From NCBI GenBank assembly GCA_963836185.1, contig CAWIIQ010000001.1:1664001-1728000 (forward strand): 64,000 nt of DNA, written 5' to 3'. The position numbers were made by a program, and so were the translations under genes. The DNA is from Candidatus Krumholzibacteriia bacterium (lineage in GTDB: Bacteria > Krumholzibacteriota > Krumholzibacteriia > Krumholzibacteriales > Krumholzibacteriaceae). Below, piece after piece: positions 21,536 to 64,000 of this stretch. The notes under the pieces were generated by a model. That model was not told where the DNA came from. It ran no database searches and worked only from the letters and a program-made list of their open reading frames with translations. Numbering within the stretch: the first letter of the stretch is position 1; each line of letters opens with the position of its first letter.

Positions 21536-22213
21536 TTGAACGAGGAATTCGGCGCTCTTATTCCCGCTTTCAATGAAGCCGGCCATATCAGCGGAGTGAT
21601 TCAGGGCGTAGCGGGACAGATCCCCTTATCAAATATCGTGGTGATAGATGACGGCTCGTCAGACTCCACTGTCTCCGAGGCAGAAGGGACCGGCGTCAAG
21701 GTCGTAAGCAACGAGATAAACCTGGGAAAAGGCGCCACTCTCCTGAAGGGTTTCGAGCTTATGGCCGAGAAAAAGGGAATCGAGGCCGTTTTCACTCTCG
21801 ATGCCGACGGCCAGCACGACCCTGCCGAGATGTCATCCTTCATCAGCGCTTTCCGCGAGAAAAAGGCCGATATCGTCATAGGAAGCAGAATGGCGGATAC
21901 CGCCGGTATGCCGGCCCTGAGAAGGTGCACCAACTGGTCGACCTCGGCGATCATCAGCCTGCGGGCAGGTGTAAGGATAGCGGACACCCAGTCGGGATAC
22001 CGCCTGTTAAGACTCTCGATGCTGAACAAGCTTGAGCTTGTTACCCGTAACTTCGACCTTGAGAGCGAGATCCTCATAAAGGCCGCTCGTCTCGGGGCCG
22101 TGATCGTCTCTGTACCGATCACTACGATCTACGGAGAGGAAAAGAGCAAGATCAATCCGGTTGTCGACACCTGGCGATTCCTTAAACTGGTCTTCCGCAG
22201 CTTTCTCTGGTAG
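21536..22213 (+). CDS. GT2 glycosyltransferase (DPM1-like)
   Basis: IPAFNE, DDGSSD, DADGQH, DTQSGYR. Confidence 0.92.
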   Translation: MNEEFGALIPAFNEAGHISGVIQGVAGQIPLSNIVVIDDGSSDSTVSEAEGTGVKVVSNEINLGKGATLLKGFELMAEKKGIEAVFTLDADGQHDPAEMSSFISAFREKKADIVIGSRMADTAGMPALRRCTNWSTSAIISLRAGVRIADTQSGYRLLRLSMLNKLELVTRNFDLESEILIKAARLGAVIVSVPITTIYGEEKSKINPVVDTWRFLKLVFRSFLW

Positions 22214-22226
22214 TATCCCTTTTCAT

Positions 22227-22988
22227 ATGAATAAGACGATCCTTATAACAAATGATGACGGAATAAGGGCATCAGGTCTCAAGACGCTCGAGGACTCCCT
22301 CTCCGGACTGGGTGATATCGTTCTTGTAGCTCCTGAAAACGAACAGAGCGCTACAAGCCATGCCATCACACTGGACAGGCCCTTACGCATCAAAAAATAC
22401 TCCGATACCAGGTACAGCGTTTCAGGCACCCCGACAGATTGCGTTCTGCTGGCTGTACACGGGATACTCGACAGGAAACCTGACCTGGTCGTATCAGGGA
22501 TAAATCACGGCCCTAACATGGGTGAGGATGTCACATACTCCGGCACAGTTGCCGCGGCGATCGAGGGAAACATACTCGGTATAGACTCGATCGCTGTATC
22601 GATAACATCCTGGGAACCGGATTCGTTTCAGGCAGCGGGAAAGATCTCCCGCTATCTCGCCTCACGCATGCTGGAAAGGGAGGGGAAAGGGGAATCTTTC
22701 CTCTGGAACGTAAACATCCCGCCTCTACCTGAGAGCGAGCTGAAAGGGATGCGGGTCACCAGGCTCGGCTCCAGGGTATACAATGACTCGATCGTCAAAA
22801 AGACCGACCCGAGGGGCAAAGATTATTTCTGGATCGGCGGCGGGGAGCCAGGCTGGAACACCGATGAAAAATCAGACTTTACCGCAGTGAGTAACGCCTG
22901 CGTAAGCGTCACTCCGCTCAAGGTCGATATGACTGATTACAAGAGCGTCATCGAGCTTGAGCAGTGGAAGCTCGACTGGAGATCATGA
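22227..22988 (+). CDS. surE: 5'/3'-nucleotidase SurE
   Basis: ILITNDDG, GTPTDCV, SGINHGPN, YSGTVAAA. Confidence 0.97.
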   Translation: MNKTILITNDDGIRASGLKTLEDSLSGLGDIVLVAPENEQSATSHAITLDRPLRIKKYSDTRYSVSGTPTDCVLLAVHGILDRKPDLVVSGINHGPNMGEDVTYSGTVAAAIEGNILGIDSIAVSITSWEPDSFQAAGKISRYLASRMLEREGKGESFLWNVNIPPLPESELKGMRVTRLGSRVYNDSIVKKTDPRGKDYFWIGGGEPGWNTDEKSDFTAVSNACVSVTPLKVDMTDYKSVIELEQWKLDWRS

Positions 22989-23618
22989 CTGATTACGTAA
23001 TAGCAAGAAGAAGGATGGTAGAGGAACAACTCGTTGCCCGCGGAATAAAGAACCCGCGCATCATAGATGCCTTTCTTACTGTCCCGCGTCACCTTTTTCT
23101 CGATCCCGCCGTAAGATCAAGGGCCTACGATGGATGCTCCTTCCCCATAGGATATAACCAGACGATCTCGCAGCCGTTCATCCAGGCGGTGATGATGCAG
23201 TATCTCGACATAGATAGTTCCGACAGGGTACTCGAAATAGGGACCGGCTCTGGATACCAGACGGCAATACTCTCCCTTATCGCCAGAGAAGTATGTTCCA
23301 TTGAGCGGATAGAGGCTTTGAGCACGGCCGCTGAGACGGTCCTGAAGGAGATACCGACCGGGAGGATACGCCTCAGAGCGGGAGACGGCTCGAACGGATG
23401 GCCGTATTACGCTCCTTTTGACAAGATAATCGTATCTGCAGCCATGAGCGAATATCCTCACGACCTCCTGTCACAACTTTCTGATGGAGGGTGCCTTATC
23501 GCTCCGGTACAGGAGATCGAAGAGCAACTCGTACTTTACCGGAAAAAGGGAGAGGAGATCGAGGAAGCAGAAACTTTCCAGATGCTCCTTCGTACCACTT
23601 CTGAAAGGAGTTGGCTGA
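22985..23618 (+). CDS. pcm: Protein-L-isoaspartate O-methyltransferase, frameshift near 23561-23566
   Basis: VPRHLF, QTISQP, VLEIGTGSGYQ, APFDKI; the conserved end CSFVPLLKGVG* lies in a shifted frame ending at 23618. Confidence 0.92.
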
Positions 23619-24120
23619 TTTGGCCCCCATTTTCGCTTTTGCCCTCAATCTCTCACCCAGGGTGATGACTTTCATCCTGTCGATGCTGCCTATCTCGGAG
23701 TTGAGGGGAGCGATACCTTATGCTATATGGGTAGGGAAGATAGGCTGGAAAGAGGCATATATCATCGCCGTCATCGGCAATTTCATTCCAGTGATCCCCC
23801 TGTTGTTCTTTATGGAGAAAGCTTCGGTATGGTTGAGGAAATATCCCCTGGGGGACAGGTTCTTCACCTGGTTCTTCAACAGGACGAGGAGGAAGGGCAA
23901 GCTGATAGAGCGCTTCCACGCGATAGGGCTCACCATGTTTGTGGCCATCCCCCTGCCGGTGACGGGAGCCTGGACCGGATGCGCCGCCGCTATAATCTTC
24001 AATATTCCGAGAAAGTTCGCCATACCGTGTATTTTCCTCGGTGTACTGATCGCAGGATGCGTCGTCACCCTGGCCAGCATGGGGGTTATATCGTTCTGGG
24101 GGATAGAGAGTCATGGCTAG
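23611..24120 (+). CDS. COG2426 / putative small multidrug export membrane protein
   Basis: PISELRGAIP and FVAIPLPVTGAWTG motifs. Confidence 0.85.
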   Translation: MADLAPIFAFALNLSPRVMTFILSMLPISELRGAIPYAIWVGKIGWKEAYIIAVIGNFIPVIPLLFFMEKASVWLRKYPLGDRFFTWFFNRTRRKGKLIERFHAIGLTMFVAIPLPVTGAWTGCAAAIIFNIPRKFAIPCIFLGVLIAGCVVTLASMGVISFWGIESHG

Positions 24121-24171
24121 CGGAATTCGTTTGTGTTGGAACGCAATAAATGATATTTTACCGTCTGGCGT

Positions 24172-24249
24172 CGGGGTGTAGCGCAGTCCGGTTAGCGCGC
24201 CTGCTTCGGGAGCAGGAGGTCGCTGGTTCAATTCCAGTCACCCCGACCA
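24172..24249 (+). tRNA. tRNA-Pro(CGG)
   Basis: CGGGGTG/CACCCCG acceptor stem, CCTGC-TTCGGGA-GCAGG anticodon arm, encoded CCA. Confidence 0.96.
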
Positions 24250-24258
24250 TTTTTTGTT

Positions 24259-24828
24259 ATGACACGTCAAAGCTTATATCAATTAATTCTCCTCATCTCG
24301 TTCTCCATTTCTTTGCTGGTCTCATGCACGCCTTCGCCGAGATATCGGAGCGGGACCCAGGATACGCGCACATCGACTCAGGCTCCTTCGACGCAATCAG
24401 ACAAGCCGGGTTCAGGCGACCTCGACATTGTACTGAGCAATCCGCTCAGAGGATCGGGAGGGGGCAAGATAAACAGCCCTTTCGGCATGAGGACCCATCC
24501 ATCATACGGGACCCAGGAATTTCATCAGGGTGTTGATTTCGAGGCGGAAACAGGAGATGATGTATATGCCTCCGCCAGCGGCAGAGTGACTTACGCGGGC
24601 AATCAGAAAGGGTATGGGAAGGTAGTGATCATAGATCACGGCAGGGATATATCTTCCGTATACGCTCATCTCTCTTCGACCGCTGTAAAAAAAGGAGCGC
24701 AGGTAGAATCGGGACAGAGGATCGGCAAGGTGGGAGTAAGTGGAAACGCCACAGGCTCACACCTGCATTTTGAATTGAGAGTTTCGGGAGAAGCGGTCGA
24801 TCCGCTTGATTACATGGAGATAAGATGA
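24259..24828 (+). CDS. M23 family metallopeptidase lipoprotein (NlpD position)
   Basis: Lipobox LVSC; HQGVD, YAHLS, HLHFE. Confidence 0.9.
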   Translation: MTRQSLYQLILLISFSISLLVSCTPSPRYRSGTQDTRTSTQAPSTQSDKPGSGDLDIVLSNPLRGSGGGKINSPFGMRTHPSYGTQEFHQGVDFEAETGDDVYASASGRVTYAGNQKGYGKVVIIDHGRDISSVYAHLSSTAVKKGAQVESGQRIGKVGVSGNATGSHLHFELRVSGEAVDPLDYMEIR

Positions 24829-25649
24829 CCGGAAGGCACCCGGACGACGATATCCAGAGACAGTACTTTAATGATATCAGCAGATATCCCGTACTGACTG
24901 CTGAGGAGGAGAAGGACCTTGCCAGAAAGTCACGTGACGGGGACGAAGCAGCCAGGAAGAAGCTGATCGTAAGCAACCTCAAGCTCGTTATAACCATCGC
25001 GAAATCTTACGCATCCTACGGAGTGCCGTTCCTTGATCTGATCGAGGAAGGCAACCTGGGCCTTATAAAGGCGGTAAGCAGGTTCGATCCGGAAAAGGGA
25101 TTCCGCTTCAGCACATATTCATCGTGGTGGATAAGACAGGCGATCGTCAGGGCCATATCGAATTACTCGAGGACGATAAGGATCCCTATACATGTCTTTC
25201 AGCTCATGTCGAAGTATGTGGGGATTGAAAAATCGACAAAACACGGCACTTCCGAAGAAAAGGCGTCCGCCCTCGGTATATCAAAAAAGAGGTACAAGAC
25301 ACTCGAGCAGCTTGTCCGAAATATCCGGGCCCTCGACCTGTCAAGCTCGATAGATTCATATAGTCAGCTCGCTACAAACATGGAGGCGATCGACCCCTCC
25401 GATCCGGAAAAAATCGTACTCAGCCAGATCGAGCACGAGGAACTGTCGGCGCTGCTCGACCGCTTGTCCGAGAGGGAAAAATTTATAATCAAGGTGAGAT
25501 ATGGATTCGAGGACGGCATACCCAGAACTCTGGCCGAGACCGGAAAACTCATACACGTATCGAGGGAAAGGGTGAGGCAGCTCGAGATGCGCGCTCTGAA
25601 AAAACTGAAATTCCTCGTGGACCCTGAAAAGACAGGCACAAAAGAATAA
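24825..25649 (+). CDS. RpoS-like (group 2) sigma70-family factor
   Basis: NLKLV, DLIEEGNLGL, FSTYSSWWIRQAI, SRERVRQLE; no region 1.1; surE-pcm-M23 context. Confidence 0.88.
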   Translation: MTGRHPDDDIQRQYFNDISRYPVLTAEEEKDLARKSRDGDEAARKKLIVSNLKLVITIAKSYASYGVPFLDLIEEGNLGLIKAVSRFDPEKGFRFSTYSSWWIRQAIVRAISNYSRTIRIPIHVFQLMSKYVGIEKSTKHGTSEEKASALGISKKRYKTLEQLVRNIRALDLSSSIDSYSQLATNMEAIDPSDPEKIVLSQIEHEELSALLDRLSEREKFIIKVRYGFEDGIPRTLAETGKLIHVSRERVRQLEMRALKKLKFLVDPEKTGTKE

Positions 25650-25653
25650 AGGA

Positions 25654-26178
25654 GTGAGGATGGAGCAGGATATCAGCAGATGGATCAGGGACATCCCGGA
25701 TTTCCCCGAAAAAGGAATACTGTTCAGGGACATTACACCGGCGCTTCTTGATCCGGTACCCTTTAAAAGCATCTGCGACACCCTGACTGCCCGATATCAG
25801 GGAAAGAATATAGACAAGATCGCCGGGATAGAGGCGAGAGGCTTCTTCTTCGCATCGGTACTGGCTTACAATCTCGGGATCGGTATGATACCACTGCGCA
25901 AACCGGGGAAGCTTCCCTGGAAGACGATCTCGAGAAGCTACAGCCTCGAGTACGGCGAAGCGACGGTTGAGATGCATGAAGATGCTGTTTCTAAGGGAGA
26001 ACGGATACTCCTGGTAGACGATCTTCTCGCCACAGGCGGCACTGCCGCCGCCGCTGCCTCACTGATAGAGAGCAGGGGGGGAGTCATCGAGGAGATCGCC
26101 TTCGTAATCGAGCTGTCCGATCTCGGAGGAAGGGAAAAGTTGGGGGAGAGGCCGGTATTTTCCCTGCTCACATACTGA
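25654..26178 (+). CDS. apt: Adenine phosphoribosyltransferase
   Basis: PDFPEKGILFRDIT, EARGF, RKPGKLP, VDDLLATGGT. Confidence 0.97.
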   Translation: MRMEQDISRWIRDIPDFPEKGILFRDITPALLDPVPFKSICDTLTARYQGKNIDKIAGIEARGFFFASVLAYNLGIGMIPLRKPGKLPWKTISRSYSLEYGEATVEMHEDAVSKGERILLVDDLLATGGTAAAAASLIESRGGVIEEIAFVIELSDLGGREKLGERPVFSLLTY

Positions 26179-26243: not shown

Positions 26244-26320
26244 GCCCCCGTAGCTCAGGCGGATAGAGCACCGGTTTCCTAAACCGGGTGTCGCATGTTC
26301 GAGTCATGCCGGGGGCGCCA
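26244..26320 (+). tRNA. tRNA-Arg(CCT)
   Basis: GCCCCCG/CGGGGGC acceptor stem, CCGGT-TTCCTAA-ACCGG anticodon arm, CCA end. Confidence 0.96.
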
Positions 26321-26325
26321 TCGCC

Positions 26326-26362
26326 AGAGGGGAGTGGGCTATTCACTCCCCCTCTTCTTTTT
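26326..26362 (+). terminator. Terminator after tRNA-Arg
   Basis: AGAGGGGAGTG/CACTCCCCCTCT imperfect stem followed by TCTTTTT. Confidence 0.7.
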
Positions 26363-26630
26363 AAACTCATCATCCCACCCTTTCTACTTACACCCGATAA
26401 TTGCATTATACCGGACAAGCCGCAGAATTACACAGTCATCACATTCTATATTGCATGGCATATTGCATATATCCATCCACCATCCGGCAATATTCTACCC
26501 GGTCCAGGGTAGGGGTGAAGTGGTACGAGATGACGACGCGATATTCTCTATAGGCACTATCTCATACATTTGCAAGGGATTAGCGGGTAGAAAGCTTTCC
26601 AGTGATTTCTCATCATATCTTTTCATCGAA

Positions 26631-26646
26631 AGGCACGAGGTATGCA
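26631..26646 (+). promoter_or_regulatory. sigma54 (-24/-12) promoter
   Basis: AGGCACGAGGTATGCA, GG and GC at canonical spacing. Confidence 0.65.
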
Positions 26647-26711
26647 ATTCCACCAGCAGCCGGACTTCCCGGCACCGGGAGACTGAGAAATTTGCCATGG
26701 AGGTGATCACG

Positions 26712-26768
26712 GTGCTGCCGATACTTTCGATTGTTTTAATCATTGATCTGTTCTGGTGGCTTCGCTGA
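26712..26768 (+). CDS. Putative 18-aa hydrophobic peptide MLPILSIVLIIDLFWWLR
   Basis: GGAGGTGATC Shine-Dalgarno (26699-26708) before GTG; upstream promoter and downstream hairpin; alternative ATG at 26697. Confidence 0.6.
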   Translation: MLPILSIVLIIDLFWWLR

Positions 26769-26785
26769 AAATACTCTCGCTCCTG

Positions 26786-26837
26786 AAAGGTAAAACGTTC
26801 CCGTCGATAGGGGTGTATCGGCGGGAACGTTTACTTT
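26786..26837 (+). terminator. Long hairpin, probable terminator of the peptide transcript
   Basis: AAACGTTCCCGTCGATA-GGGGTG-TATCGGCGGGAACGTTT followed by ACTTT. Confidence 0.7.
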
Positions 26838-26953
26838 ATCCTCAAGATATGTTTTGTCATTAAAATATCATAATATAATCCACTTTATAAGATAGTCGGG
26901 TTATCCCACTGTTATCACAACACTTGCAAAATGATAATATTTTGATTTTTTTC

Positions 26954-26981
26954 TTGACATGGCCTTCAGGAAGATTATAAT
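26954..26981 (+). promoter_or_regulatory. Consensus sigma70 promoter with AT-rich upstream element
   Basis: TTGACA-16 nt-TATAAT, preceded by a T-rich tract. Confidence 0.85.
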
Positions 26982-26986
26982 AGGCA

Positions 26987-27159
26987 AAAGTTTGGGGCAA
27001 GCGGACTGCGCGATCGTGATTCATCGGCTCCCAAGCCAATCCTATCAAGCGAAGCGATCTTGCTGCTCAGGCCTCTGTAGAGTTGAAAAGACACGTAACG
27101 CAATGTAGTCCGTCTGGTCCCAATAAAAAATGGAGAGTGGTTCGCCACTCTCCATTTTT
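26987..27159 (+). ncRNA. Unidentified structured non-coding RNA
   Basis: Lies between a consensus promoter and a terminator with no ORF; 5' TTGGGGC..GCGGACTGCG pairs with 3' TGTAGTCCGT..GTCCCAA using G-U pairs. Confidence 0.7.
27125..27159. terminator. Bidirectional Rho-independent terminator
   Basis: AAAAAATGGAGAGTGG-TTCG-CCACTCTCCATTTTT. Confidence 0.92.
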
Positions 27160-27179
27160 CTTTGCCTGTCTTGAGGTGC

Positions 27180-29642
27180 CTACTTGACCCTGAGGATCAA
27201 AGCCGTCATATCATCCGTTACACTTCCATCCCCGAAAGCCAGTACATCACGAAACAGCTTATCCATCAGTTCGGTCATCTCGAGTGACCTGTTCGACTTC
27301 AGGAATTCGATGATCCTCTCCTCGCCGAAGTACTTTCCAGCGCTCGTTTCCTGGTCGATAAATCCATCGGTGTACGATATGAGCAGATCTCCGCTCCTGA
27401 GCTTGAGAACACCGTTGATGAAACTGGAATCGGGATCGACACCTACAAGGATCCCGCCGCGCTGAAGTTTTGTCAGACTGCCGTCGCCGCGAAGAACGAT
27501 GGGGGGGAAGGCTCCACCATTGCTGAAACGCAGGATTCCTGTCTCATCGTCGTATATGCCGTAGAAAAAGGTGGCGAACCTGCTCAATTCGCTTCTGTCA
27601 TAGAGCAGCCGGTTAAGAGCGGTCAATACCTCCGCCGGAGATCTGGCCTCTGTTGCTTCCGCTCTGAATCCGGCCTGGAGAGTCGTCATCAACAATGAGG
27701 CGGGAATACCCTTGCCGGAAACGTCAGCCACGGCAAAACCCGTTACACCGGGAGCAAGGTCGAGATAGTCGTAGAAATCTCCTCCGACCTCTCTGCAGGT
27801 CCTCATCGCTCCGAGTATCTCGGCGTTCTTCATGACGGGAGGAGAGGCGGGAAGGAGGCGTTGCTGGATCTCGCTCGCCAGATGGACCTCTTCCTCCAGT
27901 TTCTCTTTCTCCTTTGAGTCCTTGTAGAGCAACTTGTTCCTCACCGCCACGGCGCTCCTCTCTCCGAGAAGCTCCAGTATCTCAGCGTCTATCCTGCCGT
28001 AGGGCTTTCCGGAAAGTTTACGTCCGATGACCGCGAATCCCAGAAGGTCGCCATGCTCTACGAGAGGGACGATCACCGATGGATCCGTAAGCGAAAGGAA
28101 TTCTCTCGAAGTCCTGTCGAGGTTGCTGTTGATCCAGATACGATCGTAGTACTCGACCATCAGTGGCATATTTTTTTCCTGTGCTATGGATATCAATGCG
28201 GTATCTCTGGGAAGAGACGAGAGTGGTACCGCCGTTCCTGCCGGGCAGCATCCGGCCATGACGAAATTCCTGCCGCCGTCGCCGAGAAAGATAAGAGCGT
28301 ATCTGGCATCGAACATGTCGCGGAGTGTGCAGGTCACGAATTCCGTCATCTGATCCAGGGAACCATGAGACTGGATACTCCTCGAAAAGTCAAAGACCTG
28401 TTCCCGGAAGATCTTCCTGTTCGTATTGAACATCCTGTCTATCATCCCCAGCAGGCTTATGCGGGCAGGAACGAATATCGCTATCACCAGGACTACGGCG
28501 AGAAACGCGAGGAAGTAATACCGCGCGTCCAGAAAAGCGGAAAAGCTATCTCCCATGATGCCGCTGCCGAATAAAAGAGCCGCGGCGAGAACCGCCGGCA
28601 CAAGTACGAAGAACAATCCTGCCCTGAACACAAAGCTCATATCGAAGGCATCGTGTTTTAATATAGCGTATGCGAAAGAGGCCGATATAAATGACAAAAA
28701 GAGTACCGCCGCGTGCTCATGGGGTATCTGGACACCCGGCAGAAAGAAACGGGTCACCATGATCAGCAGGAGGGGAAGCACTCCAAGCGTAAGTCCGATC
28801 GCGGCTATCCGGAACTTGACCTTCTGGATACGGTCGGAACTCATGTATGTCCTGACGAAGAAGAATACACTCGCCAGCATGTAGAGGAGCCAGTATATGG
28901 ATGTCACTCCGTTGAGCGCGAGTACGAGCCCCCGTTCGATCCCTGAGGAATACCGCAGCATCGCCATGATGAACAGGGCGAGAAATATGAGGGTAGGGGG
29001 GATATACAGAGTCTTTCTTATGAAATACCTGCGGGAACCGGAAGTTATCTCCTTGCCGGGAAAGATCAGGAAGAAGTGAAGAAAGAAGGCAGGAAAGAAG
29101 ACCATGAGGAAGTCGTAGACAAGTTCACCGGCCAGGTGAAAGAACGGCACCTGAGTTACGGGCCTGATCGTGAACAGAAACGCTATGGTTAGACAGTTTG
29201 CCGTAAAGAGGAACCCGAGTTGATCCGGCCTTCTCAGGATCACAACCAGCCCGAGAAATATGAAAGTGAAAGCTGTCAGGCTGTACGCCAGTCTCCTGTA
29301 GACCCTCTTGGCTGGCTGGGGGATGCTCTTTACGGTCACCTCAAGGACTGAATATCCTCTTGCGACGGTGTAGACCTGGGATTCCAGGTCGGGGGTCGAT
29401 TCAGTGAGAAAGCGGAAATGGTTGATGTTCCGGACAGCTATACCATCGACAGCCGCAATCTCATCGCCCCTTTCCAGGCTCAGGCCTACATTGGGGCTTT
29501 CCTTATCGATCTCGAAGAATACGAGGTTATTATGGCGGATTCCGGTGTAGGGGGTATCCGGCAGCCTCGATATCCCCACGATGTCGAGAACAGTGATCAG
29601 AATAGCGCCGGCGATCAGCCCAAATCTGATGAACCTGATCAC
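27180..29642 (-). CDS. Membrane PP2C/SpoIIE (RsbU-like) phosphatase with PDZ-like, multi-TM and GAF regions
   Basis: GDEIAAVDG PDZ-like segment; about 8-9 TM; VGGDFYD, ADVSGKG, YTDG, DDMT. Confidence 0.9.
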   Translation of the reverse strand: MIRFIRFGLIAGAILITVLDIVGISRLPDTPYTGIRHNNLVFFEIDKESPNVGLSLERGDEIAAVDGIAVRNINHFRFLTESTPDLESQVYTVARGYSVLEVTVKSIPQPAKRVYRRLAYSLTAFTFIFLGLVVILRRPDQLGFLFTANCLTIAFLFTIRPVTQVPFFHLAGELVYDFLMVFFPAFFLHFFLIFPGKEITSGSRRYFIRKTLYIPPTLIFLALFIMAMLRYSSGIERGLVLALNGVTSIYWLLYMLASVFFFVRTYMSSDRIQKVKFRIAAIGLTLGVLPLLLIMVTRFFLPGVQIPHEHAAVLFLSFISASFAYAILKHDAFDMSFVFRAGLFFVLVPAVLAAALLFGSGIMGDSFSAFLDARYYFLAFLAVVLVIAIFVPARISLLGMIDRMFNTNRKIFREQVFDFSRSIQSHGSLDQMTEFVTCTLRDMFDARYALIFLGDGGRNFVMAGCCPAGTAVPLSSLPRDTALISIAQEKNMPLMVEYYDRIWINSNLDRTSREFLSLTDPSVIVPLVEHGDLLGFAVIGRKLSGKPYGRIDAEILELLGERSAVAVRNKLLYKDSKEKEKLEEEVHLASEIQQRLLPASPPVMKNAEILGAMRTCREVGGDFYDYLDLAPGVTGFAVADVSGKGIPASLLMTTLQAGFRAEATEARSPAEVLTALNRLLYDRSELSRFATFFYGIYDDETGILRFSNGGAFPPIVLRGDGSLTKLQRGGILVGVDPDSSFINGVLKLRSGDLLISYTDGFIDQETSAGKYFGEERIIEFLKSNRSLEMTELMDKLFRDVLAFGDGSVTDDMTALILRVK

Positions 29643-31729: not shown

Positions 31730-34241
31730 TTATACGACTATATTGACAAGGCGCCCGGGAACGACGATCACCTTCCGGATATCCCTGCCATCGATGATAT
31801 TCCCTGATCCTTTCGTCCTCCAGCGCGAGTTTCTCGAGCTCTTCCTTTGAGGCTTCCTTTCAGCTTCGATACGGGAACGGACCTTTCCATTTACCTGTAC
31901 GACGAGCGTATAGACATCGCCCTTCAGCCAGCCCGGATCAGCTTCGGGCAGGTTCTGGAGGAATATCGACCCATTATTGCCGAGACGCTCCCATATTTCC
32001 TCGCAGATATGCGGCGCCATCGGCGCAAGAAGCAGTAACAGTGTCTTAATCGAGTATTTAAATAGCTCGCAGGCGCGTCGCTGCGCTGATGTGAATTCTC
32101 GGATCCCCGTCCATATACAGGTGTATCTCGTTTACGAGTTCCATCAGGGCGCTTATCGCCGTATTGAAATGGAATGTACCGCCAAGTATATCTCTTTTTA
32201 CCCTGTCGGTCGTCTGCTGTGTCTTGCGGTACAGCGATTTCTGAATATCAGTGAGGCTTTCAGGCTCTAATTTCAGGACTCTCTGAGGCAGCCTCCAGGA
32301 TATCGCTGTGGTTCGCATAGAGCCTCCAGACTCTGTTTACGAATCTGGAAGCGCCCTCAACGGCGCGGTCGTTCCATTCAGCGTCCTTTTCCGGCGGTCC
32401 GATGAAAAGTGTGTATATCCTCACTGTATCAGCGCCGTATTTTTCGAGCAGCGGCTTCGGATCTACCGTATTTCCAGCGCTTTTCGACATCTTGGCGCCA
32501 TTTCGCGTTATCATTCCCTGTGTGAAAAGGCTGCCGAAAGGCTCATCAAACGCTACTAACTTCCTGTCATACAGGAACTTAACGATAAACCTCGAGTACA
32601 GCAGGTGTAGGATCGCGTGCTCGATACCGCCGATATACTGGTCCACCGGAAGCCATTTGTCTACAAGAGACGGAATCAAAGGCCTTCCTGTCATCATCAG
32701 GTGACAGATAGCGCAGGAAATACCAGCTCGAATCGACGAATGTGTCCATCGTATCGGTATCTCGCAGGGCCTTACCGCCGCAGGCGGGACAATCGACGTT
32801 CACAAAGTCATCAGATGCCGCGAGCGGCGACTTTCCATCACCCCTCGGCATGAAGTCGACATCCTCGGGGAGCAACACAGGTAGCTGATCCTCGGGCACA
32901 GGCACGATTCCGCATTTAGCACAGTGTATCATCGGGATCGGAGCGCCCCAGTATCTCTGCCGCGAGATCAGCCAGTCCTTCAGCCGATAGTGGACCGTCC
33001 TGCGTGCCAGGCCCTTTCCGGCGAGAAAATCGGTGATCGTCTCCATCGCATCCCGATTACCGCGTACCGTCGAACTGCCCCGAGTTTATCATCGTCCCGT
33101 CATCGACATATGCCTCTTTCATCTCTCCAGGCTGACTACCTTCGGGCAGTATGACCTGGACCACGGGAATCTCTACTGGAGACTCCTGCACAAATTCGAA
33201 ATCTCTCTGGTCGTGAGCCGGCACACCCATAACTACGCCCGTTCCATAATCCATCAGGACATAGCTGGCAAGGAAGACCGGTATCTTCCATCCTGTGGCC
33301 GGGTTGACCGCGTAACATCCTGTGAAGAAACCCTCTTTTGTAAATTCTGTCTTCTCCCGTTCCTGGAGGCGCAGTTCACGGGCATGGGCGACGAAGGCTT
33401 TACCTTCATCCTCCCTCCCCCCTCTTTCCAGCATACCTTCGGCAAGGGGATGATCGGCCGCTATTACGATGAAGGTCGCTCCGTATATCGTATCCACACG
33501 CGTGGTGAAGCAGTCCAGCACATCATCGCTGCCCTCGAGAGGAAAAGCGACCTCGACCCCTTCGGATCTCCCTATCCAGTTCTTCTGCATCACACGGACA
33601 CGTTCGGGCCATTTGTCAAGCTTTGCAAGATCATCGAGAAGCCTGTCAGCATAATTCGTTATCCTGAAAAACCATTGCTTGAGATCTTTCTGCTCGACCG
33701 TGCTGTCGCATCTCTCGCACTCCCCTCCCACCACCTGCTCGTTCGCCAGGACAGTCTTGCATGAAGGGCACCAGTTCACTGATGCTTCAGCCTGGTAGGC
33801 GAGCCCGGCCTCGAACAGTTCGCGGAAAAGCCATTGCGTCCATTTGTAGTAGTCCGGTTTGCAGGACGCGACCTCTCTCGACCAGTCGTATATCACACCC
33901 CACTGATCGAACTGTTTTTTCATGTAGGCTATATTATCTTCTGTCCATTTTGCCGGCCTGATATTGTTCTTGATCGCGGCATTCTCCGCGGGCAATCCGA
34001 ATGAGTCCCAACCCATAGGAGCCAGGACATTCCTGCCCTCCATCATCTTGTAGCGCGCAAGAGCATCCCCGATGATATAGTTCCGGCCGTGCCCGACATG
34101 AAGGTATCCCGAAGGATAGGGGAACATCATGAGGCAGTAATATTTGTCGTCAGTATCGGCAGAATCACAGCGGAACAGATCTCCCCAGCGATCATGCCAT
34201 TTTTTTTCAGCTTCCCTGAAGGGAAAGAAATCCTCCATCAT
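31730..34241 (-). CDS. leuS: Leucine--tRNA ligase, multiple frameshifts
   Basis: [61 protein letters not shown] spread over five ORFs. Confidence 0.95.
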
Positions 34242-63756: not shown

Positions 63757-63883
63757 CTTCCGCCTTAGATCCGGCGGTTCACCTCCAATAATCGTTCAAT
63801 ACCACAAAACATTGACAATACATCAAATATGGGATACATAAAAATCTGTTATCCGGGAGTCTGGCTACGGAAGGAACTGAAAA

Positions 63884-64000
63884 AATTCCCCACTTGATGC
63901 CGTCCGCGAAAGATCTTTTTAAGCCCTGCCTAGAAAGGTGGAAATCCTCACGACACGTTCAGCCCTCCCGCCAGAGGCGGGTCCGGCATCCGGAGCCGGA
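63884..64000 (-). ncRNA. ssrS: 6S RNA, 3' part (5' end outside the window)
   Basis: Non-coding and upstream of rny, a position known for 6S RNA; minus strand ends GGACGGCATCAAGTGGGGAA with GC-rich internal stems. Confidence 0.6.

Follow-up and report, generated by a model that had tools for sequence, protein, structure and literature searches.

What does an 18-residue hydrophobic peptide do in a Candidatus Krumholzibacteriia bacterium, when its gene lies between a tRNA-Arg gene and a convergent gene for a large membrane phosphatase? The locus sits in a 64,000-nt stretch of contig CAWIIQ010000001.1 (hereafter the window), for which an initial annotation had described a transcription unit encoding such a peptide, either a toxin of the Ibs type or a regulator of a membrane protein such as the neighboring PP2C phosphatase. 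The features of the locus are collected in Table 1. The sigma54 motif, the Shine-Dalgarno (SD) sequence, the GTG codon, and the open reading frame (ORF) were each found where they had been described, the SD proved complementary to the 16S 3' tail of the same genome, and the ORF is indeed the end of a longer, 157-aa ORF (26295-26768). The downstream hairpin is also real, with a stem of 17 bp rather than the ∼20 bp first proposed. In an alignment of 22 sequences, 94.6% of its cells were paired and two-sided changes occurred at 9 of the 17 pairs. As for the small 5' hairpin, its letters are present, but given its 2-nt loop, its absence from the minimum free energy (MFE) fold, and its loss outside the genus, this inverted repeat is probably incidental. 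Genome-wide, there are 16 exact copies of the SD 10-mer. Initiation at an in-frame ATG (26697) would extend the peptide to 23 aa; since this codon has no SD and is replaced by CTG, ACG, or TTG in relatives, the GTG at 26712 is the likely start. A small RNA driven by a sigma70 promoter intervenes between the unit and the phosphatase gene.

Table 1. Features of the micropeptide locus, with positions in the window
Feature	Position	Strand	Remarks
Candidate upstream activator site, TTGCA-N7-TTGCA	26447..26470		Putative role; ∼170 nt 5' of the sigma54 site
Sigma54-type -24/-12 promoter (GG-N10-GC), AGGCACGAGGTATGCA	26631..26646	+	GG at 26632-33, GC at 26644-45
5' inverted repeat, TTCCCGG/CCGGGAG	26666..26681	+	2-nt loop; probably incidental
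Shine-Dalgarno, GGAGGTGATC	26699..26708	+	Complementary to the 16S 3' tail of the same genome
Micropeptide ORF, GTG start, 18 aa, MLPILSIVLIIDLFWWLR, then stop	26712..26768	+	Coding signature, family motif
Terminator-like hairpin, 17 bp, weak U tail	26793..26832	+	Fold and paired changes in relatives
Perfect sigma70 promoter of a separate small RNA	26954..26981	+	12/12 consensus match; conserved in the family
Unclassified ncRNA of ∼131 nt with terminator (27126-27159)	26993..27159	+	Fold z -5.45
Membrane phosphatase, 820 aa, TM-PDZ-9TM-GAF-SpoIIE (PP2C), putative peptide partner	27180..29642	-	Pfam SpoIIE, GAF, PDZ; linkage

The initial annotation had proposed that a genuine gene should keep its SD and frame and accumulate synonymous changes in related genomes, and all three were found. 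Searching 43 family genomes by DNA gave matches in 18; two of these were short chance matches and were excluded, leaving 16 loci with our own included. Pairwise comparison of these 16 BLAST-found loci, whose kin are not independent, gave 618 synonymous versus 115 nonsynonymous codon differences and a distribution of 206, 45, and 644 differences over codon positions 1, 2, and 3; in the last nine codons, 423 differences were synonymous and 29 nonsynonymous. The start codon alternates between ATG, GTG, and TTG across relatives, with SD, spacing, and frame constant, and our copy carries a 9-nt in-frame insertion relative to its 15-aa relatives. Conservation of the coding frame thus strongly supports a translated hydrophobic micropeptide, and the comparison of genomes indicates that the ORF is a real conserved coding gene, beyond what chance would give.

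The family extends well past close relatives. A back-translated motif of the exact type was present in 107 of the 208 genomes of the class, and its reversed control gave 3 hits (genome G122 and three extra matches look like chance), and variant peptides are present in further genomes without the exact motif. Members are 14 to 24 aa long and share the near-invariant core [ILV]-D-[LI]-[FLW]-W-W-L-[RK]. Over 90 distinct cellular peptides, the Asp is present in 90, the WW pair in 89, the Leu in 88, and the Arg or Lys in 90, and the N-terminal part varies freely in length and charge; several members of 14 to 15 aa have charged N termini. The C terminus is basic yet variable (R, K, RK, RRR, or RD). 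Judged by sequence, the combination of an invariant core with a free N-terminal part reads as a recognition motif without pherotype-like diversity. We found no second copy in the genome under study. Loci L096, L070, L154, L158, L159, L162, L175, and L385 to L388 were discarded as chance matches or as lacking a start. No published description of the family was found in a search that left most subscription papers and bioRxiv supplements outside, and the motif is absent from the main text of a deep-sea small-ORF atlas (10.64898/2025.12.15.694180), whose supplements could list the ORF. Region 2 of an rpoS-like protein encoded nearby (24825-25649, + strand) reads SWWIRQA, a superficial and probably coincidental likeness to the WWLR end of the peptide.

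Sigma54-dependent promoters have a GG-N10-GC consensus. A site of this type precedes the peptide gene at 72 of 94 Krumholzibacteriota loci, versus ∼7 expected, and at none of 6 loci from the sister phylum or 20 viral loci. In the genome under study, 20 of 23 hits to sigma54 activators were strong, and the TTGCA-N7-TTGCA site is kept in all six aligned sequences of the genus and has a single match genome-wide. By sequence, then, the locus has what is expected of a sigma54-dependent promoter, namely, a conserved GG-N10-GC element and enhancer-binding proteins in the same genome. A second motif, CT[AC]AAG-N15-CGA[TA], which we take to resemble the sigma28 consensus, was present in 26 of 37 genomes with a FliA/WhiG sigma factor above cut-off and in 0 of 32 without one, the pattern having been drawn after viewing the sequences and the kin being nonindependent. 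At one scanned locus, an FlhF-like gene (below its own cut-off) adjoins the FliA/WhiG sigma factor. Since our genome has neither FliA above cut-off nor the sigma28 motif at the peptide locus, a sigma28 feedback loop cannot be general. The metatranscriptome check suggested in the initial annotation gave contigs of relatives that cover the unit in two studies (26673-26817 and 26676-27051; matches in 2 of 7 runs, in small shares); as such contigs give no strand, ends, or level, their support for transcription is weak. Contigs from four runs were compared with the locus, and none covered 26341-26669, an absence that carries no weight.

Linkage to the phosphatase is nearly universal and specific to one orthologue, which favors the proposal that the peptide regulates the neighboring PP2C. 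The two genes adjoin at 37 of the 42 small-ORF loci of a GTDB scan, the misses being two contig ends and three orphans; at 28 of 30 loci in the family, where both misses are contig ends; and at all 20 loci of families f4, f6, and f9. In a blind test on 40 phosphatase orthologues from genomes without the exact motif, a variant peptide lay just downstream in 39, and the 40th ran into a contig end. In families f7 and f8, the peptide was found at 10 of 11 orthologue loci versus none of five paralogous sensors. A profile of the sensor matched 189 of 208 phylum genomes. Among 18 genomes of the sister phylum, 12 have the motif, linked to the phosphatase in 11. Family f5 had the sensor in none of seven genomes, and a relaxed-motif search of five of these gave no small ORF. 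A metagenome scan, in which 80 of at least 120 loci were examined, yielded among the loci listed at least 50 small-ORF matches, at least 20 of them linked, and at least 33 matches not called as small ORFs. One locus titled Patescibacteria (L066) was treated as mislabeled because its phosphatase groups with Krumholzibacteriota.

The phosphatase gene is the only neighbor retained in every family examined and in the second phylum, and the genes downstream change. The usual order is phosphatase and then peptide on the same strand; of the genera examined, ours alone has the promoter-peptide-ncRNA cassette inverted between tRNA-Arg and the phosphatase (26340-27180), still adjacent to the latter. The neighborhood also includes an rpoS-like gene at 18 of 24 f1 loci, all 6 f3 loci, and all 4 f7 loci; among the 20 f4 genomes with listed coordinates, 17 have it within 7 kb. 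The region is a slowly rearranging housekeeping block, within which the putative partner is assigned by gene neighborhood only. Elsewhere in the window lies a plus-strand cluster, surE-pcm-membrane protein-tRNA-Pro-M23/nlpD-like-rpoS-like-apt (22161-26178), in which surE, pcm, and apt are presumptive names taken from translations or one Pfam match; its rpoS-like gene is the one noted above as a close neighbor of the peptide in f1, f3, f7, and many genomes of f4. A leuS-like gene (31730-34241, - strand) is split into several ORFs in different frames, suggesting assembly frameshifts. The paralogous PDZ-multi-TM sensor of f8 (L360 to L364) has no peptide and is followed by a protein of ∼500 aa with an N-terminal hydrophobic segment; a second sensor match in f4 is probably the same paralogue.

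In an AlphaFold2 (AF2) model of phosphatase residues 1 to 415 (pLDDT 81), a single helix is followed by a PDZ domain and then by nine more long helices, and the predicted topology places the PDZ outside the cytoplasm, in a ComP-like layout. Residues R138, D140, F262, R264, and K276 of the sensor are conserved; sensor residues that look specific to the orthologue are confounded by clade. Neighbors in the protein atlas carry PDZ and, in 10 to 12% of members, HisKA_7TM, and the sensor module also occurs in fusions with histidine kinases, Ser/Thr kinases, and a cyclase. Foldseek returned nothing for the sensor model at E≤0.001. VIA-align retrieved PDZ domains and bundles resembling GPCRs, with Z up to 11.6 and rmsd of 5 to 6 Å; we set the GPCR-like match aside, as its scores lie within the range of unrelated helical bundles. 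Among solved structures, we found no relative of the membrane part, the best 60 of 371 PDB sequence matches covering the PDZ only. A ComP record is likewise absent among the best 120 of 123 sensor homologues, whose lengths of 815 to 2,325 aa form a range that excludes ComP (∼763 aa).

On the output side, STAS proteins are the expected substrates of RsbU-type phosphatases, and our genome has 12 STAS hits. Several STAS domains cluster at G000:C1:1296500-1305600, a candidate substrate locus for the phosphatase, together with an ORF that, from its translation, is predicted to be anti-sigma-kinase-like. In the system studied in PMC6482189, HsbR-HsbA controls RpoS and FliA.

The peptide gene also occurs in viral contigs. 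Of 26 viral loci, 21 have a complete unit of SD, start, peptide, and stop and 5 do not, and none has the phosphatase within 1.5 kb. Neighbors of several of them match terminase, endolysin, primase, RecT, and RusA (55 proteins scanned from 21 loci). The viral N-terminal parts best match different host families, one of them lying a single residue from a host peptide, which suggests that phages captured the gene repeatedly. A tblastn search of the INPHARED phages with the 23-aa form gave no match. Some contigs carry two or three copies: one metagenome contig has three different alleles in tandem (L267:183-518), and others have two (L257, L163, and L164). One copy, in a contig titled Planctomycetota, adjoins an integrase. 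Three Patescibacteria genomes also carry the peptide, and the two that were checked have no full sensor. We rejected Patescibacteria as common carriers, since in a sample of 401 genomes the relaxed pattern occurred in 11 and a small ORF in only 2, one of which was the seed genome. Among L061 and L071 (both titled Patescibacteria) and L383, two genomes without a full sensor have the peptide between an ssb gene and a DNA polymerase gene that we take to be dinB-like. These two genomes encode 7TM-type kinase-like proteins elsewhere, in one case 14 kb away on the same contig.

The reading that we favor, with moderate confidence, is that the peptide is a dedicated regulator of the linked membrane phosphatase, acting in the membrane of the cell that produces it. 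A separately promoted gene would make a peptide of 14 to 24 residues that binds the membrane sensor part of the phosphatase and tunes its activity. By the positive-inside rule, basic tails face the cytoplasm; the variable hydrophobic N-terminal part would thus be the inner-membrane anchor and leave the basic tail in the cytoplasm, and the D...WW.[RK] core would bind the sensor helices at their cytoplasmic ends, near R138, D140, F262, R264, and K276. Phosphatases of the RsbU/HsbR kind work through STAS partner switching, and this one would likewise act through an anti-anti-sigma switch of the STAS type. The sigma54 promoter and, in relatives that bear FliA, the sigma28-type promoter would make the peptide an input or a feedback arm, and phages carrying the peptide would reset the switch in the infected host. 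Such an in-membrane regulator fits best because the core is invariant without pherotype diversity, because there are no export or modifying genes among the scanned neighbors, and because phages carry copies. A precedent is MgrB, which represses PhoQ through membrane contacts (10.1101/2022.12.22.521624). Three observations sit poorly with this model: the extracytoplasmic PDZ in a ComP-like layout points to an external ligand, the members of 14 to 15 aa with charged N termini are too short for a full membrane-spanning helix, and the Patescibacteria carriers without a full sensor are poorly explained by a peptide acting inside the cell.

We also put forward, tentatively and as a possibility with less than an even standing, a broader picture of a peptide-signaling system across Krumholzibacteriota and the sister phylum. 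In it, a ComP-shaped PP2C receptor would read one WW micropeptide and set a sigma-factor switch, repeated capture would have brought the peptide into phages, in some cases with two or three alleles in an array, and some Patescibacteria carrying it would manipulate the host from outside.

The objections just listed are what an exported peptide would account for. In that case, the ORF would encode a pheromone precursor; once secreted and possibly trimmed, the pheromone would be sensed through the periplasmic PDZ and 7TM-like pocket of the phosphatase. A diderm phylum would then have a density signal like ComX/ComP or ComS, and phages and some Patescibacteria would mimic it. The predicted TM1-PDZ-nine-helix topology matches that of ComP, whose PDZ has been suggested, not shown, to bind ComX (PMC9620489); the PDZ and HisKA_7TM among the atlas neighbors, the receptor-less carriers, and the very short charged members agree with it as well, and the order of a receptor gene followed by a small WW ORF parallels type II comR-comS (PMC5131902). 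We nonetheless find it rather unlikely. The core is near invariant over two phyla, whereas ComS/XIP vary between species (PMC5131902). No exporter, protease, or ComQ-like gene was found among the seven window proteins scanned, and no leader or cleavage motif is evident. Ligands of PDZ domains have a fixed C-terminal binding end, unlike the variable, basic end of this peptide.

Conserved adjacency could also reflect a shared regulon and block, with the peptide regulating a different membrane or envelope protein or a component of a sigma-factor system. The peptide has its own promoters and terminator, the rpoS-like, tRNA-Arg, and TPR genes are conserved as neighbors over wide ranges too, and the sigma28-type motif that tracks FliA implies motility-class control in some lineages. 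A different target seems improbable to us all the same, more so than a pheromone, because it is the phosphatase that is kept as a neighbor in all families and both phyla, and because peptide and sensor are missing together from the f5 genomes checked.

The small RNA next to the peptide gene bears on the toxin option of the initial annotation, as a type I membrane toxin would be restrained by an antisense RNA. This RNA is rod-like, with a near-invariant core, AGCGAAGCGATCTTGCTGCTCAGGCC. It adjoins the peptide gene in all 27 f1 genomes with enough flank and has weak matches in f2, f6, f7, and f9. It has no Rfam family, its RNAalifold consensus is weak (14 pairs, one with a two-sided change), and one RNA library gave a stand-alone contig on 27006-27137. 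We rejected 6S and SRP as its identity because both are encoded elsewhere in the genome; the 6S RNA (C1:1727883-1728068) overlaps the end of the window (63883-64000, - strand).

The length, the hydrophobicity (mean Kyte-Doolittle value of 1.87 for the 18-aa peptide), and the basic C terminus of the peptide fit an Ibs-like toxin; a 15-aa IbsC with 10 hydrophobic residues retains toxicity (PMC8309996), and a conserved small RNA in f1 and copies on mobile elements would suit such a system. The remaining evidence makes it very improbable. The 23-aa form has no Pfam or NCBIfam match, and 32 of the 69 aligned members (≥20 aa) gave scattered hits in PHROGs, NCBIfam, and Pfam (E values of 0.017 to 0.068), in a search with low sensitivity for short queries. 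No antitoxin candidate emerged: the best ncRNA-mRNA duplex (-21.2 kcal/mol) falls within the range of 15 shuffles (-18.3 to -26.9), f3, f4, and f8 loci gave no detectable ncRNA next to the peptide, and a minus-strand 9/12 promoter at the locus does not keep its spacing in the genus. The SD is ordinary, with a predicted unpaired probability of 0.26 over 28 f1 loci versus 0.30 at 150 of 344 control sites and 0.58 at our locus; a helix enclosing the 5' and 3' ends was predicted in 16 of 28 f1 mRNAs and is not general. Finally, the gene is nearly always single copy at a fixed locus, and its eight core residues are near invariant across two phyla and phages, whereas type I toxins are poorly conserved (PMC8309996). 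A role at the RNA level (a Trp-sensing attenuator, an arrest leader, or a small RNA whose ORF is fortuitous) is scarcely credible, as the tandem Trp codons upstream of the strongly conserved hairpin stem are outweighed by the conservation of non-Trp residues amid free synonymous change, the lack of a constant same-strand gene after the hairpin, and the viral copies that keep the peptide without a sigma54 site (0 of 20).

If the peptide controls the sensor, phages would gain a way to flip a signaling switch of the host. Fusions of PDZ-multi-TM sensors with phosphatases, kinases, and cyclases occur widely, and we found no paper naming their inputs outside ComP; the locus offers a defined pair of candidate ligand and receptor, consisting of an 8-residue motif and a single protein, for which the invariant core and natural alleles are ready-made controls. 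It also points to a class of phage genes of 14 to 24 aa, missed by gene callers, that would manipulate host signaling.

Among known systems, attenuator leaders with Trp codons differ in that no regulated operon follows the hairpin here and constraint extends past the Trp codons. Ibs/Sib type I modules share an 18- to 19-aa hydrophobic ORF with a strong SD and fall, like the peptide, below 60 aa (PMC8309996); unlike them, our locus has no antitoxin or family match that we could find, an SD that is not unusually sequestered, an invariant acidic-aromatic-basic motif, and a fixed linkage to a signaling gene. Streptococcal type II ComRS also has a short hydrophobic ORF with a C-terminal WW directly 3' of a putative receptor gene, an arrangement inverted in our genus (PMC5131902), but ComR is a cytoplasmic Rgg-type transcription factor (Rgg/RRNPP HTH-TPR), whereas here the candidate receptor is a membrane PP2C in a diderm phylum. 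Bacillus ComQXPA resembles the locus in the ComP layout of TM1, PDZ, and nine TM helices followed by a cytoplasmic region, predicted here by AF2 (PMC9620489), and in that the gene for a small Trp-containing peptide adjoins that of the sensor; it differs in that the output here is SpoIIE, no ComQ- or ComA-like protein is among the seven window proteins scanned, and the peptide core is invariant. With RsbU/HsbR-HsbA, the locus shares the SpoIIE/PP2C output, STAS proteins in the genome, an rpoS-like neighbor, and, in relatives, a FliA-linked promoter (PMC6482189), although here a membrane PDZ-TM sensor and a micropeptide would supply the input. MgrB-PhoQ is similar in that a small hydrophobic protein is proposed to control a membrane sensor (10.1101/2022.12.22.521624), but there is no sequence match, the peptide here is only 14 to 24 aa long, its proposed partner is a 10-TM PDZ PP2C phosphatase and not a histidine kinase, its promoters are of the sigma54 and sigma28 types, and phages carry copies. 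Compared by sequence and gene context, the peptide family thus stands apart from Ibs/Sib, ComQXPA, and ComRS, differing from each in a defining feature, and it may work like MgrB or ComX.
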